DNA from: a virus
Lineage: Duplodnaviria > Caudoviricetes
DNA length: 57,079 nt
Strand: one strand, 5' to 3'
IMG/VR virus record: IMGVR_UViG_3300046007_011426
Location: 1-57,079 of that record
A model generated the notes under the pieces. It ran no database searches. It was not told the origin of the DNA and worked only from the letters and a program-made list of their open reading frames with translations. Position numbers and translations under genes: made by a program. Below are positions 1 to 48,443 of the stretch, one piece after another (position 1 is the first letter of the stretch; every line of letters begins with the position of its first letter).

Positions 1-2
1 AC

Positions 3-155
3 GGGTGGGATCGGGACTGGAGTGAAGGCTGCGCATCTGTGGCTGAATCAGGATTTTGGCAAGATAAACTGTCTAAGTCCCATCCTAGTTGGAATGATGT
101 ACTTAAAAAAGCAAAGAAATCAGGCGGCATGAACGCAAGAATGGAAACTTTATGA
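3..155 (+). CDS. 3' end of conserved cyanophage hypothetical protein upstream of phoH (partial)
   Basis: Frame 3 reads GWDRDWSEGCASVAESGFWQDKLSKSHPSWNDVLKKAKKSGG...TL*; its stop overlaps the phoH ATG (ATGA). Confidence 0.7.
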   Translation, partial: GWDRDWSEGCASVAESGFWQDKLSKSHPSWNDVLKKAKKSGGMNARMETL

Positions 156-925
156 CAAGATCACGCGCTCACCGTAAATCCAGGCAACAAGCAAACATCC
201 CGCTAAACAAGAAAAAAGAACAATCTCCATTAATAACTCTTGATCATCTAGTCGAACTGCAACCATTGACGAAAAATCAAGAGAGACTTTTTGATTTTTA
301 TGATGAAGGTAAAAACATCGTGGCTCATGGATACCCTGGTACTGGTAAGAGTCTTTGTCTTCTTTACAAGGCCCTAGAAGAAGTCCTGGATCCATCAACT
401 CCTTATAAAAAGGTAATTGTCGTAAGATCAACTGTTGCAACCCGCGACATTGGATTTCTCCCTGGATCAATTTCTGAAAAAATTGCGGAATTTGAAGTAC
501 CTTATAAGTACATGATTAAAAATCTTTTTGATTTTAATTCTGATGAAAAGTATGAGATGCTTTATGGGAACCTAAAGGCCCAGAAGAGTTTTTACTTTAT
601 GCCGACGAGTTTTATTCGTGGGATGACAATTGACGAGGCCGTTATAATTGTTGATGAATTTCAAAATTGTAATAATCATGAATTAGACAGTATCATTACA
701 CGAGTCGGTCTGGATAGTAAGATACATTTCAGTGGAGACATTGCCCAGTCGGATCTTATAAAAAAATCAGAAAAAGACGGGGCCGCATTGTTCTTGAAGA
801 TTCTTGGTCAAATGGAATCTTTTGAGACGATTAATTTTGGTATTGATGATATTTGTAGGTCCTCTTTGGTTAAAGAGTACATTGTTGCAAAACACAACCT
901 TGGATTATTCTCAGAACCCACTTGA
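152..925 (+). CDS. phoH: PhoH-like ATPase
   Basis: GYPGTGKS P-loop; RDIGFLPG, SFIRGMT, IIVDEFQN and SGDIAQSDL motifs. Confidence 0.95.
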   Translation: MTRSRAHRKSRQQANIPLNKKKEQSPLITLDHLVELQPLTKNQERLFDFYDEGKNIVAHGYPGTGKSLCLLYKALEEVLDPSTPYKKVIVVRSTVATRDIGFLPGSISEKIAEFEVPYKYMIKNLFDFNSDEKYEMLYGNLKAQKSFYFMPTSFIRGMTIDEAVIIVDEFQNCNNHELDSIITRVGLDSKIHFSGDIAQSDLIKKSEKDGAALFLKILGQMESFETINFGIDDICRSSLVKEYIVAKHNLGLFSEPT

Positions 926-950
926 CAAATCCAGGAGACCATGCTACAAT
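922..950 (+). promoter_or_regulatory. Host sigma70-type promoter
   Basis: TTGACA (922-927), 17 nt, TACAAT (945-950), with extended TGn. Confidence 0.8.
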
Positions 951-975
951 TACACCATGATCAGAGCCAGATAAA

Positions 976-1644
976 ATGTTTATACACAAGCCGATAGAAG
1001 TTCCAAAGTTAGAGCGATTCCACATAGACGGAAAACGTTTTTATAAAAAAGTAGATTCTGATGAATTAAAGAACTACATTTCTATTACCACGGTTACTTC
1101 TCATTATACTAAAGAAAAGTTTGCTCTATGGAGGCAACGAGTTGGAGAGGAAGAGGCCAATAGGATCACCAAGGCCGCAACGACAAGAGGAACCCAGATG
1201 CACTCTCTTGTTGAACATTACCTGGCAAACGAGCCCTTACCAAAAGCGGCTCCTCTACCTAGAACCTTATTTGAAATTATCAGGCCAGAAGTAGACAAAA
1301 TCAACAACATTATTGGTGTTGAGATTCCTCTTTATTCTGATTATTTCGGTGTCGCCGGTACCGCAGACACTATCGGTGAATACAACGGCCAAATGAGTAT
1401 AATTGACTACAAAACTTCTGCAAAAGTCAAACCAAGAGAGTTTGTCGAGAATTATTTTGTACAGGCCGCTGCATATTCCGCGATGTTATTTCAGATGACG
1501 GGTATAAAGGCTAAAAAATTAGTTATTATAATGGCATGTGAAAGTGGTGAAGTCGAAACGTACATAGAGACCGACATTATGAAATACCTAAAACTCCTAC
1601 AAAAATACATTAAAAAGTTCAAGGACGACCATGAAAACCTTTAA
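976..1644 (+). CDS. PD-(D/E)XK exonuclease (cyanophage 'exonuclease A', Cas4-like fold)
   Basis: YISITTV, RGTQMH, AGTAD, IIDYKTS and YFVQAAAY motifs; usual position after phoH. Confidence 0.85.
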   Translation: MFIHKPIEVPKLERFHIDGKRFYKKVDSDELKNYISITTVTSHYTKEKFALWRQRVGEEEANRITKAATTRGTQMHSLVEHYLANEPLPKAAPLPRTLFEIIRPEVDKINNIIGVEIPLYSDYFGVAGTADTIGEYNGQMSIIDYKTSAKVKPREFVENYFVQAAAYSAMLFQMTGIKAKKLVIIMACESGEVETYIETDIMKYLKLLQKYIKKFKDDHENL

Positions 1645-1903
1645 TTATAAACAAGAACTACAAAAAGAACTAGAAAAGAAGTTCCACTCGCCAGAAAAGT
1701 TTTCACAAGAAATCGAGAACCTAATCATAAAAAACCCAGAATATAACTACATCACCGCAATTGTTGAATACTGTGATGCTAATGATATTGATGTGGAACT
1801 AGTCCCAAAATTAATCACTAAGCCACTAAAAGAAAAACTCAAGTGGAACGCGACCGAACTTAACTTTTTAAAGAAAACATCCCTAGGAAAACTCCCTATC
1901 TAA
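1631..1903 (+). CDS. gp33: Late transcription coactivator gp33
   Basis: FSQEIE..YITAIVEYC..LITKPLKEKL..A.ELNFL; synteny with gp59. Confidence 0.9.
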   Translation: MKTFNYKQELQKELEKKFHSPEKFSQEIENLIIKNPEYNYITAIVEYCDANDIDVELVPKLITKPLKEKLKWNATELNFLKKTSLGKLPI

Positions 1904-2484
1904 TGTCCCCCTTTGAAGTTTATGAAATGTATCTGGCCATAAAGATGCATTTCACCCAACCGTCTTATGATTACTTTAAGTATTCTGGTAAGGTCAAATC
2001 AAACATCGAATCATTCAACAAAAGAAAGGACAGATACTTCTTTGAAAAACTCTCAAGAAAAAAGGCCAGAAAAGACGTTTTGAATTATTTTGTTTCAAAC
2101 TTTATAGAATCCTCTGATCCGTCTAAAATGTGGGTCGGGGAAATGAAAATATCTGGTGAGGATAATTACTTAAAATGGAAAGGACGGGTTCATTCTTTTA
2201 CTTATTTGTTTGAGTCTGATTTAAACACCCTAACGGAAGATTGTCATCTTTATGAGGCGATTATTTCAAAATCGGGTCATCCAAAAATTATAAAGTCCTA
2301 TCTGGCCGGGAGAATCTGTTTAGAATCAGTTGTTGTTATGGATGACCTGACGAAGTTTATGAGTAAGTTGCCTGGGTCTTCTGATCCTGTTTTGGAGATT
2401 ATTCGTTCCAGGGTTAGTAAGTACAGACCATTTTTCGTTTATGATAAAGACTCTGTTGTTCGTGTAATTAGGAGTAAAATGTGA
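1903..2484 (+). CDS. gp59: Helicase loader gp59
   Basis: YLAIKMHFT..YDYFKYSGK..RKDRYFFEKL; synteny. Confidence 0.9.
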   Translation: MSPFEVYEMYLAIKMHFTQPSYDYFKYSGKVKSNIESFNKRKDRYFFEKLSRKKARKDVLNYFVSNFIESSDPSKMWVGEMKISGEDNYLKWKGRVHSFTYLFESDLNTLTEDCHLYEAIISKSGHPKIIKSYLAGRICLESVVVMDDLTKFMSKLPGSSDPVLEIIRSRVSKYRPFFVYDKDSVVRVIRSKM

Positions 2485-2897
2485 TGGATTATGAGACGAA
2501 AGCGAAATTAGCGAGGAGTGAAGATACCCCTGTCGAAGTTTTAGAAGAATTGGCGACTGATGAAAATTCTGGTGTTCGCTCCTGGGTTGCAGAAAACCCA
2601 AACACACCACCAGAAACTCTAAAACTTCTGGCGACTGATGAAGATTCTTATGTTCGCTACTGCGTTGCACAAAACCCAAACACTCCAACTAAAACCCTAG
2701 AACTCCTGGCGACTGATGAAAATTCTTATGTTCGCTACTGTGTTGCAAGAAACCCAAATACACCATTAGAAACCCTAAAACTCCTGGCGACTGATGAAAA
2801 TTCTTATGTTCGCTACTGGGTTGCACAAAACCCGAACCGAACCGAACTTATCGAACGACTGGTTCTTATGACCAATTATAAACAGGAGGTGGGCTGA
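2484..2897 (+). CDS. LRV/HEAT-like repeat protein 1 (4 x 26-aa repeats)
   Basis: LATDExxxVRxxVAxNPNTP repeats; ATG at 2484 overlaps the gp59 stop. Confidence 0.9.
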   Translation: MDYETKAKLARSEDTPVEVLEELATDENSGVRSWVAENPNTPPETLKLLATDEDSYVRYCVAQNPNTPTKTLELLATDENSYVRYCVARNPNTPLETLKLLATDENSYVRYWVAQNPNRTELIERLVLMTNYKQEVG

Positions 2898-3310
2898 TGG
2901 ATTATGAGACAAAACTAAAATTAGCGAGAAGTGATGATACCACTATTAAAATTTTAGAAGAATTGGCGACTGATGAAGATTGGGAGATTCGTGACTATGT
3001 TGCAGAAAACCCAAGCACCCCAACAAAAACTCTACAACTCCTGGCGAGCGATGAAGATTATGTTGTCCGCTACTGTGTTGCACAAAACCCAAATACACCA
3101 CAAGAAACGTTAAAACTTTTAGCGACCGATGAATATTGTAGTGTTCGCTCTAGGGTTGCCGAAAATCCAAGCACTCCATTAGAAACTCTTCAGCAACTAG
3201 CGATTGATGAAGATTCCTGGGTTCGCCATCGTGTCTCACAAAACTCGAACAGAACGGAACTTATAGAGAGGCTGGTTTTTATGACTAATTATAAACAAGA
3301 GGTGGGCTGA
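2897..3310 (+). CDS. LRV/HEAT-like repeat protein 2 (4 repeats)
   Basis: Same caps and repeat; TGATG coupling. Confidence 0.9.
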   Translation: MDYETKLKLARSDDTTIKILEELATDEDWEIRDYVAENPSTPTKTLQLLASDEDYVVRYCVAQNPNTPQETLKLLATDEYCSVRSRVAENPSTPLETLQQLAIDEDSWVRHRVSQNSNRTELIERLVFMTNYKQEVG

Positions 3311-3645
3311 TGAATTTTCAAACAAAACTAGAATTGGCAAGAAGTGTTGACACTCCTGTTGAGGTTTTAGAAGAGTTGGCGGCTGATAAAGATTGGGAGA
3401 TTCGTGGCGGGGTTGCTCATAACCTAAATACACCAATAAAAATCCTACAACTCCTGGCGACTGATGAAGATTTTTATGTTCGCGCTCGTGTTGCACAAAA
3501 TCCAAACATACCATTAGAAATCCTACAACAATTAGCCACCGATGAAGGTCATTATGTTCGCTACTGGGTTGCAGAAAACCCAAACCGAACCGAACTTATC
3601 GAGAGACTGGTTTTTATGACTGATTATAAACAAGAAGTGGGCTGA
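3310..3645 (+). CDS. LRV/HEAT-like repeat protein 3 (3 repeats)
   Basis: 111 aa = 137 - 26; same caps. Confidence 0.9.
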   Translation: MNFQTKLELARSVDTPVEVLEELAADKDWEIRGGVAHNLNTPIKILQLLATDEDFYVRARVAQNPNIPLEILQQLATDEGHYVRYWVAENPNRTELIERLVFMTDYKQEVG

Positions 3646-4262
3646 TGGATTATGATTTATACGAATTACTAGAGAATATTGAAGATACTGTTTCAGATGA
3701 TCATGAATTAAAATTGGAACTAGTAGAAAGTGAGGACACGTCATCGGAAGTTTTAGAAGATTTGGCGACTGATAAATCTGATTATATTCGCAAGTGTATT
3801 GCAAAACATCCAAACACTCCAGCGAAAATACTAGAACAATTAGCGACTGGTGAAGATTATGCTGTTCTCGCTAGTGTTGCAGAAAACCCAAACACCCCAC
3901 CAGAAACTCTAAAAATTCTTGCAACTGATGAAGATTATTATGTTCGCTGCCGGGTTGCACTAAACCCAAACACCTCACAAGAAATTCTTCAACAATTTGC
4001 GACTGATGAGGATTCTAATTTTCGCGCCCGTGCCGCACACCACCCAAACACGCCACAAGAAACTCTAAAAATTCTAGCGACTGATGGATTTTGGATTGTT
4101 CGTTCTTATGTTGCAGGAAATCCAAACACAGCACTAGAAATTCTTAAACAATTAGCGACTGATGAAAATTATAGTGTTCGCCATTGGGTGGCACAAAACC
4201 CAAACAGAACCGAACTTATTGAGCGGTTGGTTTTTATGACTAATTATAAACAAGAACAATGA
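3645..4262 (+). CDS. LRV/HEAT-like repeat protein 4 (6 repeats, acidic N-terminal extension)
   Basis: Same repeat and C-cap RTELIERLVFMTNYKQ. Confidence 0.9.
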   Translation: MDYDLYELLENIEDTVSDDHELKLELVESEDTSSEVLEDLATDKSDYIRKCIAKHPNTPAKILEQLATGEDYAVLASVAENPNTPPETLKILATDEDYYVRCRVALNPNTSQEILQQFATDEDSNFRARAAHHPNTPQETLKILATDGFWIVRSYVAGNPNTALEILKQLATDENYSVRHWVAQNPNRTELIERLVFMTNYKQEQ

Positions 4263-5059
4263 AATACGAACAAAAACTATCTGCTTCAAAAAATCTTACT
4301 ACCCCAAGTGAATTATTAGAACTCCTGGCGAGCGATGAGGATAATTATATTCGTTGTTGGATTGCAAGGAACACAAAAACTCCATGTAATGTCCTAGAAC
4401 AATTGGCGACTGATGAAGTTCCTGGTGTTCGCTGTGGGGTCGCACAAAACCTAGTCACCTCTCCGAAAATTTTAGAACTCTTGGCAGGTGATACGAATCA
4501 TGAGGTTCGCTCTCGTGTTGCAGAAAATCAAAATACTGAGTCAAAAACTTTAAAGCAATTGATGACTGATGAATCTCCTTATGTTCGATATCTTGTCGCG
4601 GGAAATCCAAATACATCAGCAGATTGTTTAGAAATCTTGGCAACTGATGAATATTGTGGTGTTCGTGAATGTGTTGCACAAAATTTAAATACCCCAATAG
4701 AATCTTTACGGTTCCTTGTGTCTGATGAAGACCCCATTGTTCGTCAACGACTTGCATCAAACCCAAATACACCACCTGATTCTTTAAAACTTATGGTAAC
4801 CGATAAAAATTGTGTTGTTCGTGAACGAGTCGCAGAAAACCCAAACACATCATCAGAATCTTTAGAAATTTTGGCATCTGATGAATATAATGGTGTTCGT
4901 AATTATGTTTCACAAAACTTGAATACATCACTTAAGGCTCTACAACTTCTGGCGACTGATAAGCATTTTGCTATTCGCCATTATGTTGCACAAAACCCAA
5001 ACAGAACAGAACTTATTGAGCGGCTGGTTCTTATGACCAATTATCAGTCGGCTAAATAG
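4259..5059 (+). CDS. LRV/HEAT-like repeat protein 5 (9 repeats)
   Basis: More divergent repeats; same C-cap RTELIERLVLMTNY. Confidence 0.9.
   Translation: MKYEQKLSASKNLTTPSELLELLASDEDNYIRCWIARNTKTPCNVLEQLATDEVPGVRCGVAQNLVTSPKILELLAGDTNHEVRSRVAENQNTESKTLKQLMTDESPYVRYLVAGNPNTSADCLEILATDEYCGVRECVAQNLNTPIESLRFLVSDEDPIVRQRLASNPNTPPDSLKLMVTDKNCVVRERVAENPNTSSESLEILASDEYNGVRNYVSQNLNTSLKALQLLATDKHFAIRHYVAQNPNRTELIERLVLMTNYQSAK
5052..5058 (+). promoter_or_regulatory. T4-type late promoter (CTAAATA) upstream of gp32
   Basis: Same motif recurs before many structural genes in the window. Confidence 0.5.
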
Positions 5060-5124
5060 ACAATAATGGGTTGGTAAACCTGTCAAAAAAGCTTCCGGTT
5101 TAATGTTATCTATCGTATTAAAAA

Positions 5125-6063
5125 ATGGATTTTAAACAACTTAAAAAACAATCTTCCTTAGGTTCTCTGACTGAGAAACTTCTTAAGGAAGCAGAAAAAA
5201 TGGGATCCTCCTCTTCTGAGAAGGACAGTCGGATTTTTACGGTTGAAAGAGATTCTTCGGGTCTCGGAATTGCGATTATCCGTTTTCTCTCACAGCCAGA
5301 AGGGGAAGATTCGCCGTTCATCAAAATTTATTCTCACGGATTCAAGGAAAATAATCGTTGGCTTATAGAAAATTGTCCGACAAGTTTAGGCCATGATTGC
5401 GAAATTTGTAACCGTAATTCGGCCTTATGGAACAGTGGTATTGATGCAAATAAGAAAATTGCTAGTGCTCGTAAAAGGAAGTTAAATTTTTATAGTAACA
5501 TTCTTGTGATCAAAAACCCGGCCAATCCAGAGCTAGAAAATAAAGTTATGTTATTTAGATATGGCAAGAAAATCTTTGATAAGATTATGAGTGCCATGAA
5601 ACCGGAATTTCCGGGTGACCCAATTATTGATCCATTTTGTATGTGGAACGGTGCAGATTTTAAAATTAAGGTAAAAACTGTTAAAGAATCAGGCAATAAC
5701 AATTCTTTCCCCAACTATGATGATAGCGTGTTTATGAACACTCGCGCCATCTCAGATGATGATGAGGAACTAGAAAAAATCTGGAAACAGTGCTATTCCC
5801 TTCAGGAACTTATTTCTCCAGATAAATTCAAGTCTCCAGAAGAACTCACCAAACGTCTAGATTACGTTCTAGGAACTTCTACTCCCACACCTTCACCGGT
5901 TCAACAGCAGGAAGAAGAGATCGAGGAACAGTTTTCAACGACTCGGGAGCCTAATGTTATGGAAGACCTGGAAAGGTCCTTCAACCGCTCAAAGGATCCT
6001 CTAGAAGAGGATGGAGATGAGGATGACGATGTATTATCTCGTTTTCAAGAACTAGCCACATGA
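5125..6063 (+). CDS. gp32: Single-stranded DNA-binding protein gp32
   Basis: AIIRFL, YSHGFK, IENCPTSLG..CEIC zinc site, YGKKIFDKI, PNYDDS; acidic C-terminal tail. Confidence 0.95.
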   Translation: MDFKQLKKQSSLGSLTEKLLKEAEKMGSSSSEKDSRIFTVERDSSGLGIAIIRFLSQPEGEDSPFIKIYSHGFKENNRWLIENCPTSLGHDCEICNRNSALWNSGIDANKKIASARKRKLNFYSNILVIKNPANPELENKVMLFRYGKKIFDKIMSAMKPEFPGDPIIDPFCMWNGADFKIKVKTVKESGNNNSFPNYDDSVFMNTRAISDDDEELEKIWKQCYSLQELISPDKFKSPEELTKRLDYVLGTSTPTPSPVQQQEEEIEEQFSTTREPNVMEDLERSFNRSKDPLEEDGDEDDDVLSRFQELAT

Positions 6064-6067
6064 GTGA

Positions 6068-6074
6068 CTAAATA
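6068..6074 (+). promoter_or_regulatory. Late promoter for putative sRNA
   Basis: CTAAATA inside the 13-nt direct repeat TGACTAAATAGTA (6065-6077). Confidence 0.65.
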
Positions 6075-6077
6075 GTA

Positions 6078-6140
6078 AGTTCGTTGAAACGGCAATCTCT
6101 ACGAACAAGAACTGGTGCTCTTCGGGGCACCTTTTCTTTT
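6078..6140 (+). ncRNA. Putative ~60-nt late small RNA complementary to the leader of the downstream nuclease gene
   Basis: Bounded by a late promoter and a terminator; hairpin GTTCGT/ACGAAC; 6080-6096 is complementary to 6166-6182. Confidence 0.55.
6114..6140 (+). terminator. Rho-independent terminator
   Basis: GGTGCTC-TTCG-GGGCACC followed by TTTTCTTTT. Confidence 0.9.
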
Positions 6141-6156
6141 GTAAAAAATTATTTGA

Positions 6157-6163
6157 CTAAATA
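6157..6163 (+). promoter_or_regulatory. Late promoter for the nuclease gene
   Basis: Second copy of TGACTAAATAGTA (6154-6166), about 25 nt before the ATG. Confidence 0.7.
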
Positions 6164-6187
6164 GTATTGCCGTTTCAATGAATAACA

Positions 6188-7285
6188 ATGACTAACCAAA
6201 GTCCAAGAATTTACGTATACAAAATTACCTTTGAAGAGAACTCTTATTATTACTATGGGGTTCATAAGGAAGATGTTTTTGATGAGTACTACATGGGTTC
6301 ACCTAAAACTCATAAGTGGGCTTGGGAATTTTATACCCCACAGAAAACAATCCTTCAAGTATTTCCTTACACTGATGAAGGATGGTTACAAGCAAATAAT
6401 ATTGAAGATAGATTGATTAAACCAGTTTATAATATTGATAAATGGTGTCTTAATGAGAGTTGTGGAGCATTTATTTCTTTAGATGCTTGTAAAAGAGGAG
6501 GACAAAAAACTGGAAAAAAACATAAAGAAAATAATACTGGTATTTTTAATCTTACTCCAAAAGAACGAACCCAAGCTAGTAAAAAAGGAGGCAATTCTTG
6601 TAAAGAGCGGGGAGTAGGTTTTTTTAGTCTTACAACAGAACAAAGAATTGAAAATGGAAAAGTTGGTGGTAATATAGCAAAAGAAAATAATCTAGGTGTA
6701 TGTGGACTTTCTTTTGATGAATTATCTGCTGCTGGCAAAAAGGGTGGAAAAATAGCAAAAGAAAATAAACTAGGTATACATAGGTTATCTCCTGAAGAAA
6801 AATCAAAAAATGGAAAATTGGGGGGAAACGCCGCGAAAGAAAATAAAGTTGGGGTTCACAGTCTTTCTCATGAGGAATTATCTGCTGCTGGCAAAAAGGG
6901 TGGAAAAATAGCAAGAGATATGAAATTAGGCATTCACACTCAAACTTACGAACAAAGACAAGAAAACGGCAGAAGAGCTGGAAGATATATTGTGGAAAAT
7001 AAAATAGGAGTTCACAGTCGCTCAAAGGAGCAAATGAGTGAAGATGGGAGAAAAGGGGGTATTACTCAAGGAAATAGACATAAGGAAAATAAGACGGGTG
7101 TTTGCGGTCGCTCAAAAGAAAAAATGACAGAAGATGGGAGAAAAGGGGGAAAACTAGGTTCTAAGAATACAAATTCACAAAGATACCAATGCACAAAAAC
7201 TGGATATGTTTCAACGCCTGCTGGTCTTTCCGCCTACCAAAAAGCCAGAGGCATCGACACATCAAACAGAATCCGCCTTCAATAA
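6188..7285 (+). CDS. Free-standing GIY-YIG-like (Seg-type) homing endonuclease with tandem KGG-containing repeats
   Basis: IYVYKITF..YYYGVH..YMGS..IEDRLI..CLNE N-terminal domain, then eight 26-30 aa basic repeats. Confidence 0.7.
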   Translation: MTNQSPRIYVYKITFEENSYYYYGVHKEDVFDEYYMGSPKTHKWAWEFYTPQKTILQVFPYTDEGWLQANNIEDRLIKPVYNIDKWCLNESCGAFISLDACKRGGQKTGKKHKENNTGIFNLTPKERTQASKKGGNSCKERGVGFFSLTTEQRIENGKVGGNIAKENNLGVCGLSFDELSAAGKKGGKIAKENKLGIHRLSPEEKSKNGKLGGNAAKENKVGVHSLSHEELSAAGKKGGKIARDMKLGIHTQTYEQRQENGRRAGRYIVENKIGVHSRSKEQMSEDGRKGGITQGNRHKENKTGVCGRSKEKMTEDGRKGGKLGSKNTNSQRYQCTKTGYVSTPAGLSAYQKARGIDTSNRIRLQ

Positions 7286-7995
7286 TCATAAATCCGACTA
7301 TTTTCCCCCCGCTTCAACTTCCTATTAATAAACTGCGACCCGCCTTCCTTATAAGTCATAATCTCCTCTAAGTTCTCAAACAGCACATTCAAATACGTAG
7401 GTTTTAATATAAAAATATCCCTCTTCTTCTCTTCCTTTCTTACCTCATATTGATAATTCGTCACCTCAACAATAAAATCCGTAGATGGAATTAAAACATC
7501 CTGCTCGATTCCATCATCATAGAACCCAAAATAATACTCGCCATTATTTTCCACATAATTACCATTAGTGCTCCAGGTCGGGCTGATTCGTTTTCCCGCC
7601 TCTAAAAGAACCCGCCCTTTAGAGTCCTTTATTTCCAGGGTCTCATAATGATGAACGCCACCATAAAGATTTTCATAAAAACCATATTTTTGTAACATTA
7701 CCTTATCGAATGTTTGTTGCGGAAGAGGCCATTCTTCTTGGACGTTTATTATATTATTAGAAAGAAAAATAACCCAGTCCAACGTAGGATCACCATAAAA
7801 TCTTGATGCAATATTATCAGCCCTTTCATTCCCGACGATACTGTATTTTGTGAAGAAGGTTAGGTCATTAAAAATTTCTTCAAATAATTTGCCTCGTCTA
7901 AAGAAGTTTTTTATCTGAGTATATTCGCCTATCTTTGCATTTGGTAGGCGATTTATGTATTCAAAATTTGGGAGGTAGTCGAAATAGTGGGCCAT
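7279..7995 (-). CDS. gp53: Baseplate wedge protein gp53
   Basis: YFDYLPNFEY, ERADNIA..YGDPTLDWVI..NNI..EWPL, VTNYQYE motifs. Confidence 0.9.
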   Translation of the reverse strand: MAHYFDYLPNFEYINRLPNAKIGEYTQIKNFFRRGKLFEEIFNDLTFFTKYSIVGNERADNIASRFYGDPTLDWVIFLSNNIINVQEEWPLPQQTFDKVMLQKYGFYENLYGGVHHYETLEIKDSKGRVLLEAGKRISPTWSTNGNYVENNGEYYFGFYDDGIEQDVLIPSTDFIVEVTNYQYEVRKEEKKRDIFILKPTYLNVLFENLEEIMTYKEGGSQFINRKLKRGENSRIYDY

Positions 7996-9266
7996 TAGTA
8001 ACCTATCGTATGGATAGAAGTTTCATTTGCTTGTTTTCCATAATCAGAAGCGTAAACTGGAGTTAGTTCTTTGAATTGCAGAGTGAGTCTATACATGACC
8101 ATTGTTGCTTCAGTGTCAGCAAAAGTCATATAAGATCCCATCGGGGTATAATCAACAGTACAATTCTGGAGAGCACATTTTTTTATTCTACCTATAGATT
8201 GATGCTCTTTTGCCTCAACTGGGGTTGTCCTATTGCTTATCCTACCTCTCATATACCTAATTTGAAAGATATAAGGAGAATTTAAAAAGACCCCAGCAGA
8301 AAATTCACTACTTCCTAATTGCCCTAATTCCCCGATATTATCGCGGGTCGCCATATTTGATTTAAAAAAATAAATAATATCTTTTATTGCAGTAGCGTCT
8401 TTATCATCTTTTGCAAATAAGTCAAAGGCAAATGAAAATTGCCTTAATTGTGGACCATTGAATAATAATTCAATGTTGTTGTTTAGGATTGCACCAGTTG
8501 ATCTCGTTAATAGATTATTAACCTGAACAGCCTGACCAGCCAGGGCAACTTTTATTGCAGTCGTGGCGGGGCTTCCTTCAGTAAATAAGTCTTTAAAACC
8601 ATCTATTTCACCTAAATTTTTTGGATCAAATGCGTTAGTATCTGATCGAGCAAGATTTAAAGAAGCATTTGCAAAAACTCTCTGTAGTTCCGAAAGCCGG
8701 TCGTCCAACCAGTCAACACTATTTGTGTCACTAATTTTAGTAATCGGTAAAACAACAAATGGGGTAGATTCTACTCTTTTATATTTTTTATCCTCTCTAT
8801 TTCCACCGACCCCGGCAATTACAATATCTTGCCCTAGTGTTGATAGGCTTCTACTTTCCGGATTATATTCATAAACGCTGAATTGTACATGATCCTGATC
8901 ATCGCTAATATCTTGTGGATATTTCAAAAAAGTGCTTTTTGTGCCTATATTTCTATACTCAATTGTCGTATAAGCCTCTTTGGGTATTGTAATAGAAAAT
9001 GGTTGATTCTCCGTTATCCCGGCTTCTGCTAGAGATTTCTTACTTTCCTTTACTAAATCTTTATTATTCTTTTGCTCATCATCAGTCGCCTTATCAGTTG
9101 GGGTAAACTTTCCATCTTGGTCATAAGAACCAATAGTCACAAAGGTAGTTGTCGATGCCCTAGGAGATGGTCTATCTTCCCGTTGAATTAAAGTTTTCCC
9201 CTCTTCGACTAACGATTTATAGGTTTTGTTATTATATCTATAGGGTTTAGATTCTTTTTCTTCCAT
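7995..9266 (-). CDS. gp48: Baseplate tail-tube cap gp48
   Basis: LKYPQD, NNNIELLFNGPQLRQFSFAF, CALQNCTVDYTP and LQFKEL motifs. Confidence 0.85.
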   Translation of the reverse strand: MEEKESKPYRYNNKTYKSLVEEGKTLIQREDRPSPRASTTTFVTIGSYDQDGKFTPTDKATDDEQKNNKDLVKESKKSLAEAGITENQPFSITIPKEAYTTIEYRNIGTKSTFLKYPQDISDDQDHVQFSVYEYNPESRSLSTLGQDIVIAGVGGNREDKKYKRVESTPFVVLPITKISDTNSVDWLDDRLSELQRVFANASLNLARSDTNAFDPKNLGEIDGFKDLFTEGSPATTAIKVALAGQAVQVNNLLTRSTGAILNNNIELLFNGPQLRQFSFAFDLFAKDDKDATAIKDIIYFFKSNMATRDNIGELGQLGSSEFSAGVFLNSPYIFQIRYMRGRISNRTTPVEAKEHQSIGRIKKCALQNCTVDYTPMGSYMTFADTEATMVMYRLTLQFKELTPVYASDYGKQANETSIHTIGY

Positions 9267-9279
9267 TTAATCTTTATGA

Positions 9280-9858
9280 CTATTTATTTACTTTTATGGG
9301 ATAAAAAGTAGGAATCCTTAAAACATAATCCAATTCTGATGGCTCTATACGATATAATTTACTCTGCACTCTATCAAATCTATATTTCCTAAAAGGTGAC
9401 TGAACATAAGTAATTGCGTCCCTCCAGTGAAAATTAATCCCCTCAAAATAACTACCACTTGCATTTGTGACTAAAACAACTGGATTCATGTCATACCATT
9501 CACCAGTTTTTGCGATATATTTAAAAGTATAAATCTCATTCAATTGAAATGAATCAGCGGTTCTCCCCTCTGTTGCCAAAACACCAATCAACAACTTAAA
9601 ATAATAATTAGGATCATAACCACTAGGAATATTTTTAGATAATTCTTCTAACTTGTTTATCTTTTCTTTTTCTTTTCTAGCCGCCTTATAATCAACAAAT
9701 TCTTCTGGATCCCTTCCTTGTTTTTTGGCAAGATAAACAATTCTCTGCTCATCAGCATCTATCTTCCTTCTTTTTGCATCGGCCAAACGACCAAAAAGAC
9801 TTAAAATTTTACTAACGGCACCCCAGGCCCTGGCCGCAACATTCGATAAAATTCCCAT
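9280..9858 (-). CDS. gp2: DNA end protector gp2-like protein
   Basis: YTFKYIAKT..WYDMNPVV..FEGINFHW..RKY; adjacent to gp4. Confidence 0.65.
   Translation of the reverse strand: MGILSNVAARAWGAVSKILSLFGRLADAKRRKIDADEQRIVYLAKKQGRDPEEFVDYKAARKEKEKINKLEELSKNIPSGYDPNYYFKLLIGVLATEGRTADSFQLNEIYTFKYIAKTGEWYDMNPVVLVTNASGSYFEGINFHWRDAITYVQSPFRKYRFDRVQSKLYRIEPSELDYVLRIPTFYPIKVNK
9281..9287 (-). promoter_or_regulatory. Late promoter (ATAAATA) for gp48-gp53
   Basis: Minus-strand motif about 15 nt before the gp48 start. Confidence 0.6.
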
Positions 9859-9860
9859 AT

Positions 9861-10301
9861 CTAAATCCCCAATTCTTTTTCTGTGACTACCCTAAACATC
9901 ATATTGTTTGATTCACAAAACTGTTTTGCCTGATTCCATTTGGACTGATTCTTTTCATAAGTAGCAACCTCATTAAGATAAGTCTGGGTTTTCTTTCTGC
10001 CTTTTTTAGGAGGTCTGGTTTGTTTGTCTGGTTTTATTTCAATCAGATAAGAATCAACTCCCCCACTTCTGTTTTTTACCTTTAAAAACAAGTCAGGAAA
10101 ATATCTTCTTACCTTATTGGTCGAAGAATCAAAATACTTTATAGGAAATGGCTCAGAAGACCATTCTAAAATACTATCGGTCGTGTCCGCCCATTTAAAG
10201 GCCCTTAGTTCCCATGAGGATCTAAACACAATTTGGTTCACATCACCAATGTATTTTTGTGGATTTTGTGGTTTAAACAGTCCTTGTAAATAATTGGCCA
10301 A
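9861..10301 (-). CDS. gp4: Head completion nuclease gp4 (TTG start)
   Basis: PQNPQKYIGD, FRSSWE, WSSE, RRYFPD, IEIKP, NQSKW and VTEKEL motifs. Confidence 0.9.
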   Translation of the reverse strand: MANYLQGLFKPQNPQKYIGDVNQIVFRSSWELRAFKWADTTDSILEWSSEPFPIKYFDSSTNKVRRYFPDLFLKVKNRSGGVDSYLIEIKPDKQTRPPKKGRKKTQTYLNEVATYEKNQSKWNQAKQFCESNNMMFRVVTEKELGI

Positions 10302-10307
10302 GGGTTA

Positions 10308-10333
10308 ATAAATAGTTATTATTACTTATTTAT
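10308..10333. promoter_or_regulatory. Pair of oppositely oriented late promoters for gp54 (+) and gp4 (-)
   Basis: ATAAATA on + at 10308-10314 and on - at 10327-10333, in a 35-nt gap. Confidence 0.7.
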
Positions 10334-10336
10334 TAA

Positions 10337-10972
10337 ATGGCCCCGAGAATTAGACCATTATCAGAAATAAAATCTAAACTTTTAAGGCCAGCGACGACTA
10401 GTCATTTTGAATGCGATTTTATTATTCCTGGGAATAATGAAAGTGGAGTTTTGCAGTTTTTAAACCAACGGATCGGGAATGGAGCGTTTGATAAAGACAT
10501 AATAAATCTTAGTTGCTGTGATGCGTCGCTTCCAGGATCTACTCTGCAAACGGCAACTCTTACTGATTCTTATACTGGTGTTACTGAAAATTATGCCTAT
10601 AGGAGAGCCTACGATAATCGGGCGGATTTTACTTTTTATGTTGTTTATAGCCCAGAAAAAGCTCCTTATTCTGTAATTGAAGTATTTGAAAATTGGATTG
10701 CCTATGCGGCTGGTGAAGATGATAAAAGAGGGCAAGGAAATCCAAATTATTTTTATAGGGTTAATTTTCCTTCTTTATATATGACAGACTTTACTATCAA
10801 AAAATTTGAAAAAGATTTTGATAAAACAAAAAAATTTTTAAGCTATCGATTCATACGTGCCTTTCCTCAGTCTATTGCCTCAATGCCAGTTTCTTATGAG
10901 GGCTCTCAGGTATTAAAATGCACTGTATCTTTTTCATACCAAAGGTATGTATTAAATCTACCAAATCCCTAA
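10337..10972 (+). CDS. gp54: Baseplate tail-tube initiator gp54 (tube fold)
   Basis: ASLPG, FTFYV, FENW and AFPQSI..VSY..CTVSFSY motifs. Confidence 0.75.
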   Translation: MAPRIRPLSEIKSKLLRPATTSHFECDFIIPGNNESGVLQFLNQRIGNGAFDKDIINLSCCDASLPGSTLQTATLTDSYTGVTENYAYRRAYDNRADFTFYVVYSPEKAPYSVIEVFENWIAYAAGEDDKRGQGNPNYFYRVNFPSLYMTDFTIKKFEKDFDKTKKFLSYRFIRAFPQSIASMPVSYEGSQVLKCTVSFSYQRYVLNLPNP

Positions 10973-10981
10973 ACCAATCAC

Positions 10982-10988
10982 CTAAATA
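10982..10988 (+). promoter_or_regulatory. Late promoter for the gp26 operon
   Basis: CTAAATA about 28 nt before the ATG. Confidence 0.7.
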
Positions 10989-11016
10989 GTACCATGGTTA
11001 TTACTTTATAAATTTT

Positions 11017-11739
11017 ATGGCTCTTCCTATTGTTAATGCTCCTGAATATTTTCTTGAACTCCCTTCAACTGGAAAGAAGGTGAAATATCGTCCTTTTGTT
11101 GTAAGAGAGGAAAAGGTTCTTCTACTTGCACTTGAATCCGAGGACGTTGCTGAAATGTCTAACGCGGTGAAAAATGTATTGACTAGTTGTGTAAAAGGCG
11201 AAAACCTTAATATTGAAACCCTCCCTACTTTTGATATTGAATACCTATTCCTCAATATCCGAGGAAAGGCGGTTGGAGAAGAGATTGAATTGCAACTTCT
11301 TTGCCCTGATGATGGTGAGACTTATGTAAAAACCAAGATCTTTATTGATGAAATCAAGGTCAAAAAAGACCCTACCCATACTAATAAAATAAAGATTAAT
11401 GATGACCTGATGATGGAAATGAGGTATCCATCACTTGAGCAGTTTATTAAATCCAACTTCAACTTTGAAGACCGCAAGAGTCAACTAGAGCAATCAATTG
11501 AACTAATCGCCTCTTGTGTTGATAAAATTTATAACCAAGAAGGGGTCTGGACTTCTTCTGATGCGACGACTAAAGAAATTATTGATTTTCTTGAAGACCT
11601 TACCTCGACCCAGTTCAGTGAGATTGAAAAGTTCTTTGAGACCATGCCAAAACTAGAACATAAAGTCAAGATTAAAAATCCAAAAACAGAAGTCGAGAGT
11701 ACCATTACACTTGCAGGGCTAACCGATTTTTTCGGTTGA
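11017..11739 (+). CDS. gp26: Baseplate hub subunit gp26
   Basis: LPSTGKKVKYRPFVVREEKVLL, FDIEYLFLNIRGKAVGE and FFETMPKL motifs. Confidence 0.9.
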   Translation: MALPIVNAPEYFLELPSTGKKVKYRPFVVREEKVLLLALESEDVAEMSNAVKNVLTSCVKGENLNIETLPTFDIEYLFLNIRGKAVGEEIELQLLCPDDGETYVKTKIFIDEIKVKKDPTHTNKIKINDDLMMEMRYPSLEQFIKSNFNFEDRKSQLEQSIELIASCVDKIYNQEGVWTSSDATTKEIIDFLEDLTSTQFSEIEKFFETMPKLEHKVKIKNPKTEVESTITLAGLTDFFG

Positions 11740-42102: not shown

Positions 42103-42240
42103 ACTACTGTGAAGCTAAAGACTTCGCAGTTTCAGCATTCATAGACTCTTCTATTGAAGACGCCTCCTGCTGTTTTTGTTTAGAGTCCGATTGCGTTCCA
42201 CAACCAGACAGAATATTCAATCCTTGAATTAAAATGTTTT
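42079..42240 (-). ncRNA. Putative omegaRNA/reRNA overlapping the tnpB 3' end, with guide AAGAATGTTCTTTGTGGTGG
   Basis: Hairpin ACTGCGAAG/CTTCACAGT (42106-42130) and upstream TGAA able to pair with terminal TTCA; 5' boundary is a guess. Confidence 0.6.
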
Positions 42241-43312
42241 TTGCCGCATTAGTGTCTCTGTCGTGAACTGTTCCACAAGAAGGACAAGTCCATTCCCGAA
42301 CATTTAGAGGCATAGAATCCATTAAATGACTACAAAAACTACAAGTTTTACTGGAAGGATAGAACCTATCTATCACAACAAGTTCTCTTGAGTTCCATTT
42401 GCACTTATAAGTAAGCATAGAGACCAATGTTCCCCAAGAAACATCATTAATTGCTTGTGCCAATTTATGATTTTTAACCATTCCTTTTACATTCAGGTTC
42501 TCAATACAAATAACTTGGTTTTCGTTAATGAGTTGAGAAGTAATTTGATGTAAGTAGTCTAGTCTTTGGTTAGTTACTTTTTCATACTGAATTGCTAGTT
42601 TGTTTCTCCATTTTTCTCTTGTTTTGGTTTCCTTTTTCTTTTTAGAATGTTGTCTCTGAATGTATTTGATTCTCTTCAGTCTTCGCTTTAGAAATCTCTT
42701 GTTTGGGAAGACCTCACCATTAGAAGTAATTACTAAATCCTTAATTCCTAAATCTATTCCAATACAATCTTCAACTTGTGGTTTTGGTTGAATATCAAAT
42801 TCTCCCTGAACCGAGGCATAATATTTCCCAGAAGGAGTTTTAGAAATTGTTACAGAATTAATTTTAATCAACTCTCCTTTATAATTTCCTTTGAATTTAA
42901 ATGGTTTTTTAAATTTAGGAATAGTAACCAGATTGTTTTCCCAATCAACATCAAAATGTTGAGGCACTCTAAAGGAATACCTAGATTTTCTTTTAGACTT
43001 AAATTTAGGAAACTTTGCTAACTTTCTAAAAAATCTATCATAAGCACCATCTAAATCTTTAATAGATGCCTGAAGGGTTTGAGAATTAACTTCTTTTAAC
43101 CATTCGGTTTCAGTTTCTTGTTTTAAATTTACAAGAAGTTTAGATGCGTCAATATAAGAAAGTTTATTTTTTCCTTGATGATAATTTTCATTAAATATGT
43201 TCAAAAAGTGATTATAAACCCACCGTCTACAACCAAAATGCTTTTCAAGCAGAACAACATCTTGTTGGTTATTTGGATAGATTCTAAGTTTAACTGCTTT
43301 TTGGACCAACAT
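42104..43312 (-). CDS. tnpB: TnpB RNA-guided endonuclease
   Basis: N-terminal HTH (LRIYPN..FGCRRWVYN); RuvC-I GIDLG, RuvC-II IENL, zinc finger CSFC/CPSC, RuvC-III DRDTNAA. Confidence 0.95.
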   Translation of the reverse strand: MLVQKAVKLRIYPNNQQDVVLLEKHFGCRRWVYNHFLNIFNENYHQGKNKLSYIDASKLLVNLKQETETEWLKEVNSQTLQASIKDLDGAYDRFFRKLAKFPKFKSKRKSRYSFRVPQHFDVDWENNLVTIPKFKKPFKFKGNYKGELIKINSVTISKTPSGKYYASVQGEFDIQPKPQVEDCIGIDLGIKDLVITSNGEVFPNKRFLKRRLKRIKYIQRQHSKKKKETKTREKWRNKLAIQYEKVTNQRLDYLHQITSQLINENQVICIENLNVKGMVKNHKLAQAINDVSWGTLVSMLTYKCKWNSRELVVIDRFYPSSKTCSFCSHLMDSMPLNVREWTCPSCGTVHDRDTNAAKNILIQGLNILSGCGTQSDSKQKQQEASSIEESMNAETAKSLASQ

Positions 43313-46639: not shown

Positions 46640-47971
46640 ATGATGTTCAAGATCTCAGAAAAAGCCAATCCAAATTATCTTGCGGCAATCGTTCGGCTGG
46701 ATAATATTGTTCCTCATCCTAATGCGGACAGGCTTCAAATTGCCGTTGTTCAGGGAAATTCTGTTATTGTGTCCTTGGATGCAAAGGAAGGAGACGTTTA
46801 TGTTTACTTTCCTTTAGAGTGCGCCATTAATAAGGAATTCCTTTCATGGAGTAATTCTTTTTCCGATAAAACAATGAACTCTGATACAGAAATAGCTGGG
46901 TTTTTCGGAAAACAGGGAAGAGTCAAAGCGGTAAAACTTCGGGGAGCACCATCTATGGGGTATGCCGTTCCCCGCAACAAACTAGAAATGTGGCTATCAG
47001 AAAAAGAAAAGAAGGCAGTTATTATTTCTGATGATCTTATTGGAAAGGAGTTTGATTCTTATAATGATATTATTATTTGTGAAAAATATGTGAATCCTGT
47101 TGCCCTTAAGAAGCAGAATAAAGAGAAAAAGAACCAAAAGAAAGTTGTTCGGGAACCAAAAGTTGTTGATTCTCAATTTCATTTTCACATAAACACGCCA
47201 CAACTTAGGAAACTTATTCACAATATTTCGCCAAACGATTATATTGCAATTACCCGAAAACTTCATGGAACGTCATGGGTTGCGGCCAGACTTCTCTGTA
47301 ATAAAAGGCTGACCTGGCAAGAAAAAGTACTTAAGAAGTTTGGTGTAAAAATTGTTGACACTGAATATGATTTGCTCTGGGCATCAAGAAGGGTCCTGAA
47401 AAACGGCTATCTTGAAGTAGGAAATAAAGATCACTTTTATTCTTATGATCTATGGGAAGATATTGCCAAATCAGTAGAATACGCAATTCAAGATTCTATT
47501 ACTCTTTATGGCGAATCCGTGGGGTACACAAAAACTGGTAGTTTTATTCAAAATGGATATGATTATGGATGTCCTGTTGGGCAATTTAAAACCTATATTT
47601 ACCGAATCACCACAACGAATCAGTCTGGTCAAGTTTATGAATTTTCTCATAATCAGGTAAAGGAATATTGTGAAAAATTTGGTCTTACAATGGTTCCTGA
47701 ACTTTATTATGGAAAGGCCAAGGATCTTTATCCGGAGCTTTCTGTAAAAGAACATTGGCACGAAAATTTCCTCCAGCGTCTTATTGAAGATTATCTTGAG
47801 AAAGATTGTGATCTATGTAAATCTCAAAAGGTTCCTGATGAGGGAATTTGTCTTCGTAAGGATATTTTCGATATCGAAGTTTATAAACTCAAATCATTCA
47901 AATTCCTTGAATGGGAAACAAAACAACTAGATGACGAAAATTATTTAGATATGGAATCCCAAGATGCCTAA
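46640..47971 (+). CDS. ATP-dependent RNA ligase with N-terminal OB-fold (DRB0094/Rnl5-like)
   Basis: PHPNADRL..VYFP..KLRG..SMG OB domain; motif I RKLHGTS, III YGE, IV EGIC, V KLKS. Confidence 0.85.
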   Translation: MMFKISEKANPNYLAAIVRLDNIVPHPNADRLQIAVVQGNSVIVSLDAKEGDVYVYFPLECAINKEFLSWSNSFSDKTMNSDTEIAGFFGKQGRVKAVKLRGAPSMGYAVPRNKLEMWLSEKEKKAVIISDDLIGKEFDSYNDIIICEKYVNPVALKKQNKEKKNQKKVVREPKVVDSQFHFHINTPQLRKLIHNISPNDYIAITRKLHGTSWVAARLLCNKRLTWQEKVLKKFGVKIVDTEYDLLWASRRVLKNGYLEVGNKDHFYSYDLWEDIAKSVEYAIQDSITLYGESVGYTKTGSFIQNGYDYGCPVGQFKTYIYRITTTNQSGQVYEFSHNQVKEYCEKFGLTMVPELYYGKAKDLYPELSVKEHWHENFLQRLIEDYLEKDCDLCKSQKVPDEGICLRKDIFDIEVYKLKSFKFLEWETKQLDDENYLDMESQDA

Positions 47972-48443
47972 AGCAATCCTTCTCTGCGGTGTACCAACAT
48001 CAGGAAAATCTTCCTGGGTTAAAAATCATCCAGGTTACATTGTCATTTCTTCTGATAACATAATCGAGAACTATGCGAAAAACATCGGATCAACTTATGA
48101 TGGTGTCTTTGATCACTATATACAAGAGGCAATTTCTTTGATGCTTCAACAACTTAAACACGCAGTCAAGAACAATAAAAACATTATTGTCGATCAGACT
48201 CACCTGACACCCAAAGTCAGAAAAAGAAAACTCAGAATGATCTCGGATCATTATGAGAAAATTGCTGTTTATTTTGAAATCTCTAAGGAAGAAATGCTAA
48301 AGAGAAACCACAACTCGGACAGAACAAAAACTGTCCCGGTTCATGTGCTAGAGTCGATGCATGGCTCTTATAGTAGGCCATGCGTTTCGGAGGGTTTCTC
48401 CCAAGTGGCCGATGGACGGTCCTTCAACTGTCCACTAAATTGA
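47964..48443 (+). CDS. Polynucleotide kinase-like P-loop protein (AAA_33 type)
   Basis: GVPTSGKS, ISSD, IVDQTH, RN..R..VP and EGF motifs. Confidence 0.85.
   Translation: MPKAILLCGVPTSGKSSWVKNHPGYIVISSDNIIENYAKNIGSTYDGVFDHYIQEAISLMLQQLKHAVKNNKNIIVDQTHLTPKVRKRKLRMISDHYEKIAVYFEISKEEMLKRNHNSDRTKTVPVHVLESMHGSYSRPCVSEGFSQVADGRSFNCPLN

Follow-up and report, generated by a model that had tools for sequence, protein, structure and literature searches.

In eukaryotic viruses and in immune systems, host–parasite conflict is typically marked by families of repeat-protein binders that expand and shuffle. The ankyrin multigene families of poxviruses and giant viruses combine a variable binding part with a conserved end, differ in copy number between strains and act against host functions, and their conserved C-terminal part recruits host ubiquitin ligases. 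In T-even phages, the internal-protein locus, a hyperplastic region of the T4 type, holds strain-specific small genes, some of them anti-defence, that are swapped between conserved genes; these small genes are unrelated and share a capsid-targeting leader. We found no bacteriophage example of an expanding, shuffling repeat-protein binder family in the searchable literature. Of the LRV repeat family, the solved structure is that of an Azotobacter vinelandii protein (1LRV), which has an N-terminal iron–sulfur domain and for which we know of no function. Here we describe an array of five LRV genes (positions 2484–5059, + strand) that lies between the genes for the gp59 helicase loader (1903–2484, +; PF08993, E 9.5e-14; phrog_269, E 5e-56) and the gp32 single-stranded DNA-binding protein (5125–6063, +; PF08804, E 4.9e-47; phrog_224, E 2.6e-97) in IMG/VR virus record IMGVR_UViG_3300046007_011426. 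The stretch analysed, which we call the window, is the whole of this 57,079-base record, estimated to be about 23% complete. We propose, with a probability of roughly 0.6, that the LRV proteins are binders aimed at host proteins and expressed with the early or middle replication genes. By our reading they form a lineage-specific, recombining family.

The five genes are built alike. LRV gene 1 (2484–2897, 137 amino acids (aa) from its ATG), gene 2 (2897–3310, 137 aa), gene 3 (3310–3645, 111 aa), gene 4 (3645–4262, 205 aa) and gene 5 (4259–5059, 266 aa), all on the + strand, encode an N-cap, a run of 26-aa repeats and a C-cap. Cutting each protein backwards from its C-cap in 26-residue steps gave 4, 4, 3, 6 and 9 ungapped repeats in genes 1 to 5, 26 in total, and Tandem Repeats Finder reports 78-nt periods over 2551–4900, with the closest similarity in the array among repeats 2 to 4 of gene 1 (86% nucleotide matches). 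An earlier note on this DNA had described a five-gene array with these repeat counts and a near-invariant C-cap; the open reading frames (ORFs), the 26-residue cutting and the tandem-repeat search confirm it, and N(P/S)NRTELIERLV(L/F)MT(N/D)Y is present in all five proteins. The shared N-cap that it also described (MDYETK.KLARS.D) is close in genes 1 to 3, but it has diverged in gene 5, and in gene 4 about 16 extra residues precede it. Similarly, lengths that differ by whole 78-nt units hold as a rule (33 + 26n residues), the exceptions being the N-terminal extension of gene 4 and gene 5, which is one residue short. The proteins start with a 14-residue capping helix, and all are acidic (pI 4.5–5.1, net charge -8 to -20).

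The array fills the gap between gp59 and the gp32 leader exactly. The TGA stop of gp59 overlaps the ATG of gene 1 as TGATG, the same overlap recurs between genes 1 and 2, 2 and 3, and 3 and 4, and genes 4 and 5 overlap as ATGA. The final codons of the C-cap (…KQEVG) encode GGAGGTG immediately 5′ of the next start, and the conserved 3′ end therefore doubles as the ribosome-binding site of the following gene. In the ankyrin families the conserved end recruits a host factor, whereas here it resembles a structural capping helix and also encodes the ribosome-binding site of the following gene; those families also differ in repeat fold and belong to eukaryotic viruses. Our scan found no terminator-like site within the array or between gp59 and gp32, and the first one downstream on the + strand is a hairpin with a T run at 6114–6131, after gp32. 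In an independent lake metagenome run (X5), which carries no flag as a potential source of the window, contigs without differing letters span six of the six gene junctions. None of the X5 contigs listed bridges the interior of gene 1 (2533–2843), so the repeat count of this gene is the least certain. One X5 contig joins 2884 to 4394 and skips 1509 nt; we rejected it as a variant because its shorter side amounts to only 22 letters. Depth peaks over 2459–2875 in three DNA runs were likewise rejected as a sign of copy number, as they reflect many related repeats.

All five proteins exceed the curated Pfam cut-offs of LRV (PF01816; 21.6 bits) and LRV_2 (PF25591; 27 bits), with scores of 94.4 and 44.8 bits for gene 1, 66.6 and 36.7 bits for gene 2, 60.9 and 29.0 bits for gene 3, 109.4 and 58.1 bits for gene 4, and 123.3 and 48.6 bits for gene 5. 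With LRV scores of 61–123 bits against that cut-off, we exclude chance as an explanation of the array. The 17 LRV repeat matches in the window all fall within 2493–4885, and the HEAT and HEAT_2 models score below LRV on these proteins. The only solved-structure match by sequence is 1lrv (E 1.8e-7), and the same structure is the top Foldseek match (E 3e-7, TM 0.62/0.69, 27% identity, rmsd 3.6 over 220 columns) of an AlphaFold2 model of gene 5 (pLDDT 87.9, pTM 0.79), which has two short helices per 26 residues and a longer last helix. The next fold matches of this model are the PP2A-A HEAT scaffold and artificial alphaRep binders (4zv6, TM 0.73/0.70), and an ESM Atlas model is available for gene 4 (pTM 0.78). 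In a viral structure library, the best matches are proteins of uncultured Caudovirales phages labelled 'Leucine rich repeat variant', and giant-virus ankyrin proteins are among the weak ones. The predicted models and the family scores together support the earlier note's reading of the array proteins as LRV/HEAT-like alpha-solenoids. They share the repeat family and the L..LA.D....VR..VA signature with the A. vinelandii protein, but the repeats of the latter are about two residues shorter than the 26-residue unit, and the phage proteins are minimal, consisting of caps and repeats; Pfam gave no iron–sulfur family of the A. vinelandii type at their N-termini at E 0.01 or better.

HEAT-like proteins of cyanobacteria suggest another role, namely that the array encodes phycobilisome-directed proteins (NblB-like or CpcE/F-like) that remodel host light harvesting. 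The closest named phages infect Synechococcus, the cellular relatives of the family are cyanobacterial, and genes 2 and 3 have weak matches to NblB (E 3.9e-4 and 2.7e-3, respectively), all of which would fit. These matches reach only 20.0 and 17.3 bits against an NCBIfam cut-off of 300, however, and each covers a single repeat with no separate stretch of its own; genes 1, 4 and 5 have none. None of the five proteins has a HEAT_PBS match at E 0.01 or better in Pfam, or any match above cut-off in NCBIfam, so there is no close match to NblB or to a bilin lyase, the latter being a case that the earlier note had named as counting against its reading. Moreover, one enzyme-like function would not call for two to five variable paralogues, or for the 24 found in a related phage described below. 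We regard a phycobilisome-directed role as very improbable.

The distribution of variation within the repeats is binder-like. Over the 26 repeats, column entropy is 2.2–3.2 bits at positions 3, 5, 8, 14, 15, 16, 19, 20 and 23, at most 0.5 bits at T1, L6, L9, D12, R18, A22 and N24, and below 1 bit at A10, V17, V21 and N26. Positions 15, 16, 19 and 20 are often occupied by Tyr, Trp, Cys or His, and each repeat carries a conserved D-E-(D/N). Because positions 15–23 form the second helix in the AlphaFold2 model of gene 5, helix geometry places positions 15, 16, 19, 20 and 23, spaced i, i+1, i+4, i+5 and i+8, on one face of this predicted helix. In the alphaRep libraries (PMC3754942), randomisation affects positions 18, 19, 22, 23 and 26, which have this spacing too and lie on the concave, target-contacting face. 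The array shows the same logic of a conserved framework with variable residues on one face of the second helix, in a two-helix solenoid with N- and C-caps. The alphaRep repeat is longer (variable positions numbered up to 30), and alphaRep proteins are man-made with a target-binding face, whereas the diversity of the array is natural and its binding putative. This pattern of variable residues agrees with the binder family that the earlier note had proposed.

Comparison of orthologues with paralogues bears on the same question. Variable-site identity is 285/324 (0.88) between orthologous repeats versus 0.16–0.17 between paralogous ones, and framework identity is 584/612 (0.95) versus 0.68–0.71. 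Each paralogue thus has a face of its own that its orthologues mostly share, as one would expect of proteins with separate targets. The pairs are uneven, however: gene 1 and its relative in contig L013 have only 20 of 36 variable residues in common, with 63 of 68 framework residues kept. Over six orthologue pairs, dN/dS was 1.17 at variable sites, 0.34 in the framework and 0.39 in the caps, compared with 0.06–0.07 for gp59 (Fisher test of nonsynonymous versus synonymous changes, p = 0.001).

A role in mimicking nucleic acid, as in anti-restriction proteins, or in binding it, as in the HEAT-like AlkC/AlkD type, must also be considered. The acidity of the proteins and the conserved D-E-(D/N) of each repeat would be in keeping with a mimic, and the automatic JGI names among the 120 homologues listed include 12 'AlkC' and 2 'CopG/RHH'. 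Those AlkC names are automatic, however, and no DNA-glycosylase family (AlkC/AlkD) was found in Pfam or NCBIfam at E 0.01 or better, while an acidic surface speaks against DNA binding. As for the conserved charges, a HEAT-type framework itself requires a conserved Asp and Arg in each repeat, and a mimic would have no need of nine aromatic-rich positions that vary freely in every repeat. We therefore consider a nucleic-acid-directed function unlikely.

We rejected diversification of these sites by a diversity-generating retroelement (DGR). No RVT_1 match is present in the window or in the related phage genomes G001 and G002, and in a third, G003, the DGR variable region lies in a 160-aa non-LRV ORF. 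In addition, Trp and Glu occur at the LRV variable sites, and neither residue can arise from the AAY codons typical of DGRs. With no DGR acting on the LRV genes, their diversity is therefore attributed to point change and to recombination between units and cassettes. The DGR of G003 is on an LRV-rich contig (L150, G003:C1, 1–2561) and comprises a reverse transcriptase ORF (125–1156; RVT_1, E 4e-16), a template repeat at about 1–113 and a variable repeat at about 2434–2546, at the 3′ end of the 160-aa ORF. There, 13 of 13 mismatches fall on template adenines, and the target is not an LRV protein.

To follow the array among relatives, we compared the gp59–gp32 interval of the window with those of other viral contigs. 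Seven of these, with gp59 of 95–100% aa identity, have LRV genes that start at the gp59 stop. Complete intervals are available from seven contigs including the window (L015 was left out because it ends inside the array), and they fall into six arrangements. Against 4, 4, 3, 6 and 9 repeats per gene in the window, L013 has a gene of 4, a 159-aa ORF, a one-repeat remnant and genes of 4, 9 and 4; L014 has a gene of 7, the 159-aa ORF, a remnant and a gene of 4; L016 has a gene of 7, the 159-aa ORF, a remnant and genes of 4, 5 and 4; L033 has genes of 4 and 3, the second without a C-cap; and L034 and L035, contigs from different samples, both have genes of 3 and 4. L015 has a gene of 4 and one of at least 4 at the contig end. 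The array is therefore variable in copy number and content even among phages with gp59 identity of at least 95%, in agreement with the expanding family that the earlier note had envisaged. The 159-aa ORF (MEIQTPQKNF...) looks identical in L013 (810–1289), L014 (7443–7922) and L016 (4278–4757) and has no Pfam, NCBIfam or PADLOC match. It is followed by the one-repeat LRV remnant, which has the C-cap in L013 and L016 and is shorter in L014, and the placement of the ORF would fit replacement of the 5′ part of such a gene.

More distant relatives lack the array. In L038–L040 (gp59 identity 76%) and L041 (63%), gp59 and gp32 are separated by 71–74 nt, and the nucleotide homology of L038 and L041 to the window ends at 2450 and resumes at 5066/5067, so that the array is a clean insertion or deletion. 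Accordingly, the spacer and gp32 leader of the window (5060–5124, +) align from about 5066 with the short gp59–gp32 spacer of the array-less relatives. In phage B3 gp59 adjoins gp32, in phage S-SRM01 the slot holds DUF1825 and NUMOD3 genes, and the complete genomes of both gave no LRV match. In the 72 loci for which both gene ends are available, gp59 and gp32 lie less than 150 nt apart in 7, 150–499 nt in 46, 500–799 nt in 5, 800–1199 nt in 10 and at least 1200 nt in 4. The slot is thus generally variable and not normally empty, with unrelated small genes in most T4-like cyanophage loci, and the earlier note's premise that gp59 and gp32 are normally adjacent applies to only 7 of the 72. What sets the array apart from the T-even internal-protein locus is that a single repeat family fills the slot, and that there is no evidence of packaging.

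Individual genes differ in how far they are shared. Among the sampled arrays, gene 1 has relatives of 80–81% identity, gene 2 has orthologues of 90–93% aa identity in L013, L015 and L016, and gene 5 has an orthologue of about 95% in L013 (96% across 263 aligned residues and 94.7% along the whole protein); gene 3 has no relative above 61% identity and gene 4 none above 55%. An alignment of ten 4-repeat genes contains chimeras, such as the L014 gene whose middle repeats match gene 1 and whose last repeat matches gene 2. LRV cassettes have thus been shuffled among related phages. The flanks are not uniform either: between the window and L013–L016 and L033–L035, gp59 is 95–100% identical but gp32 only 77–83% at the protein level. 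The two sides of the array therefore differ in history, and the region is a mosaic.

This turnover would also be expected if the genes were selfish or nearly neutral repeat DNA that spreads by recombination in a permissive slot and is of no use to the phage. Gain and loss are rapid, remnants occur (the one-repeat fragments of L013 and L016, the shorter one of L014 and the L033 gene that lacks a C-cap), and mobile genes lie nearby, including homing-endonuclease-like ORFs and the unrelated 159-aa ORF inside the arrays. Apart from the remnants, however, the reading frames are open in every contig, and the framework has a dN/dS of 0.34 and 95% identity between orthologues. Variable-face residues, though near random between paralogues, are 88% conserved between orthologues, and up to 6% of a related phage genome is given over to the LRV family. 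We give little credence to neutrality.

The family extends well beyond this slot. Five related contigs contain 75, 71, 61, 11 and 38 Pfam LRV matches. The genome G001 (179.5 kb, 83% complete), which is syntenic with the window over the PhoH, exonuclease, gp59, gp32, baseplate and fibre genes, devotes 6% of its DNA to the family, in the form of 24 LRV ORFs that together contain 101 repeats and are arranged in pairs and singles amid small ORFs. These ORFs have a different shared C-cap, NPNTP(H/R)YIKKYLKIQEHL, and the gp59–gp32 slot of G001 holds three non-LRV ORFs. Genes with the window-type C-cap occur at other loci in five contigs (L017, L018, L019, L140 and L142), and the unsampled three quarters of the present phage may therefore hold more of them. 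On L028, a related 46-kb phage contig, a 739-aa LRV protein with at least 21 repeats (9063–11282, 337.8 bits) is part of a cluster of seven LRV ORFs.

Dispersal of this kind bears on whether the LRV proteins serve the replisome. As accessory or shield proteins they would bind gp59 or gp32 and modulate these proteins or hide them from host sensors, a role the earlier note had raised. Such a role would explain the position between gp59 and gp32 and the translational coupling to gp59; the first LRV gene starts at the gp59 stop in 8 of 8 close-clade contigs, and the scan places no terminator-like site before gp32. Yet the syntenic G001 keeps its 24 LRV genes elsewhere, window-type genes stand at other loci in the five contigs just named, and the relatives at 76% and 63% gp59 identity, B3 and S-SRM01 share the replication genes without any LRV gene. 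Furthermore, most T4-like cyanophage loci hold unrelated small genes in this slot. The family's many other positions thus weaken the case for a replisome role, which we think improbable.

Similar proteins are common among uncultured viruses. The nearest ESM Atlas clusters (53–252 members) are LRV clusters in which viruses make up most of the classified members. Small LRV proteins abound in viral metagenome clusters, are annotated automatically in UniProt and are included in a PHROG of unknown function. A tblastn search with gene 5 against 50,697 phage records returned a single record within the E 1e-5 limit, that of Moorella phage MTATph1 (36% identical across 46% of the query), and no cultured cyanophage with the LRV family was found at that sensitivity. 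We found no publication that describes the LRV family in phages in the cyanophage, bacteriophage and PF01816 literature. The earlier note's remark that no such phage system had been described is therefore right as regards published work, but the proteins themselves were already present in the databases.

The kinship of the phage and the cellular relatives of the LRV family both point to cyanobacteria. The gp32 protein is 61% identical to those of Synechococcus phages B3 and B23, the closest named phages, followed by other Synechococcus and Prochlorococcus myoviruses, and the public sequencing runs that match the stretch are labelled lake water or freshwater. Given this kinship and these labels, we treat the phage as an uncultured freshwater T4-like phage; its host is probably a cyanobacterium. 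DNA near-identical to window positions 1–8000 is absent from the named phages searched. In a search of one genome per prokaryotic species, 14 of the 15 loci with cellular relatives (34–50% identity) belong to Cyanobacteriota in the broad sense, among them Nostoc, Waterburya, Drouetiella and Melainabacteria/Obscuribacterales, which supports the link to cyanobacteria made in the earlier note. The cyanobacterial proteins that we looked at (L120 and L124) share the NPNTP...L..LA.D...VR repeat with the array, but they are larger (480–700 aa), have additional N- and C-terminal regions and lack the RTELIERLV C-cap. From these comparisons it is reasonable to suppose that the family was captured from a cyanobacterial host and then reduced to a minimal form. 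One metagenome-assembled genome (MAG) contig of Cyanobacteriota (L120, 1–10487) carries a tandem array of at least five LRV paralogues (305+, 633, 540, 528 and 478 aa), followed by a MoxR-like AAA ATPase and a DUF2201 metallopeptidase/VWA protein. This cellular array may correspond to those of the phages. PADLOC gave one weak match there (IetA, E 9.5e-4), so no link to a known defence system was found.

We propose the following explanation for these features. Each gene would act as a cassette whose C-cap carries the next ribosome-binding site and whose stop overlaps the next start. Given this layout, cassettes could be added, lost or swapped by recombination between shared caps or repeats and still be translationally coupled to gp59, and the same recombination would shift repeat number by whole 78-nt units. 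The conserved framework builds the solenoid, while about nine positions per repeat, above all 15, 16, 19, 20 and 23, vary freely between paralogues. By this variation every paralogue would have a distinct surface for binding and a protein partner of its own, in all likelihood from the host. Binding would take place in the early or middle phase of infection and would serve host takeover or the neutralising of host defences, with the family expanding, contracting and shuffling under an arms race.

Several points weigh against binders directed at host proteins. That the proteins bind partners is inferred from the pattern of variation, and the acidic pI would also fit a nucleic-acid mimic. The excess of change at variable sites is modest (dN/dS about 1.2) and based on 57 changes, two of the six pairs (both of the gene 2 orthogroup) do not have it, and the near-identical pair L014/L016 has too few changes. 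Because the paralogues of the window itself served to define the variable positions, relaxed constraint is compatible with the result. PADLOC-DB 2.0 gave no significant match, with one weak match for gene 1 (PDC-M72B, E 0.0034, no separate stretch) and none for genes 2 to 5. All contigs are metagenome assemblies, in which repeats can be mis-assembled, and no independent contig listed spans the repeats of gene 1. The one RNA run that matched part of the stretch (X24; 5% of sampled words; low-depth contig data) is uninformative on transcription of the array, as its two 151-nt contigs (5076–5226 and 5281–5431) cover the gp32 leader and 5′ part and none lies on the LRV genes. Finally, the 21 promoter-like sites in the sequence equal the number expected from shuffling (19.1 ± 3.9). 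For this reason the best of them, a sigma-70-like candidate upstream of the exonuclease gene (922–950, +; TTGACA, 17 nt, TACAAT, with TG; 11 of 12 consensus matches), is only a weak lead, although it may be the start of the array-bearing transcription unit.

A more far-reaching version of the host-directed binder proposal, which we offer tentatively and consider possible rather than probable, is that this clade of lake T4-like phages keeps a natural, alphaRep-like binder library, with dozens of small LRV solenoids per genome that have aromatic-rich faces and are encoded in recombining, coupled cassettes. The paralogues would each act against another immune sensor or effector of the host, neutralising it, or would mimic the host's large LRV proteins. 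The gp59–gp32 array would then be one hot spot in a type of counter-defence repertoire that is not known to have been described in bacteriophages. The array is a compact test case, with small proteins, confident models (AlphaFold2 for the 9-repeat protein and ESM Atlas for the 6-repeat protein), defined variable faces, and natural variants differing by whole cassettes or repeats already present in lake metagenomes. Should the targets be host defence or takeover proteins, the family would add many new phage–host interaction pairs to the few available for freshwater cyanobacteria, and it would offer a natural scaffold akin to those of engineered binders. Even if the proteins are dispensable, the array documents the turnover of a slot between two core replication genes in T4-like phages.

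Three antisense ORFs run through the array on the - strand (2326–2688, 3236–3583 and 4455–4775) and recur opposite LRV genes at other loci. We rejected them as genes, as their matches to other loci arise only from overlying the same repeats, and read them as by-products of repeat codon make-up. Upstream of gp59, the window encodes PhoH (152–925, +), a PD-(D/E)XK exonuclease (976–1644, +) and a gp33-type late-transcription coactivator (1631–1903, +). Downstream of gp32 and its terminator-like hairpin is a homing-endonuclease-like ORF (6188–7285, +; phrog_314, E 5e-7) of 365 aa without a Pfam match, which by eye starts with a GIY-YIG-like motif (IYVYKIT...YYYGV) and continues with about nine copies of a GGK.AKENK.G(V/I)H unit. 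Homologues of about 50% aa identity follow gp32 in L013 and L014, are reversed in L016, lie upstream of gp59 in L034 and L035, and are found between PhoH and the exonuclease in phage B3. On this sequence evidence, the ORF is a mobile gene that adjoins the variable slot; in T4, segG is likewise located beside gene 32.

Rfam and tRNA scans of the whole window were empty. Elsewhere in the window, a TnpB/IS605 OrfB-type gene (42104–43312, -; 401–402 aa; phrog_506, E 2.6e-132; Pfam OrfB_IS605, Cas12f1-like TNB domain and HTH_OrfB_IS605) stands amid phage fibre and helicase genes and has a homologue of 42% identity in G001 (169151–170329). At 46640–48443 (+), an RNA ligase gene (phrog_968, E 1.9e-60) is followed by a polynucleotide-kinase/ATPase-like ORF (phrog_505, phrog_2071), and the two look like an RNA repair pair of the kind that T4 uses against anticodon nucleases.

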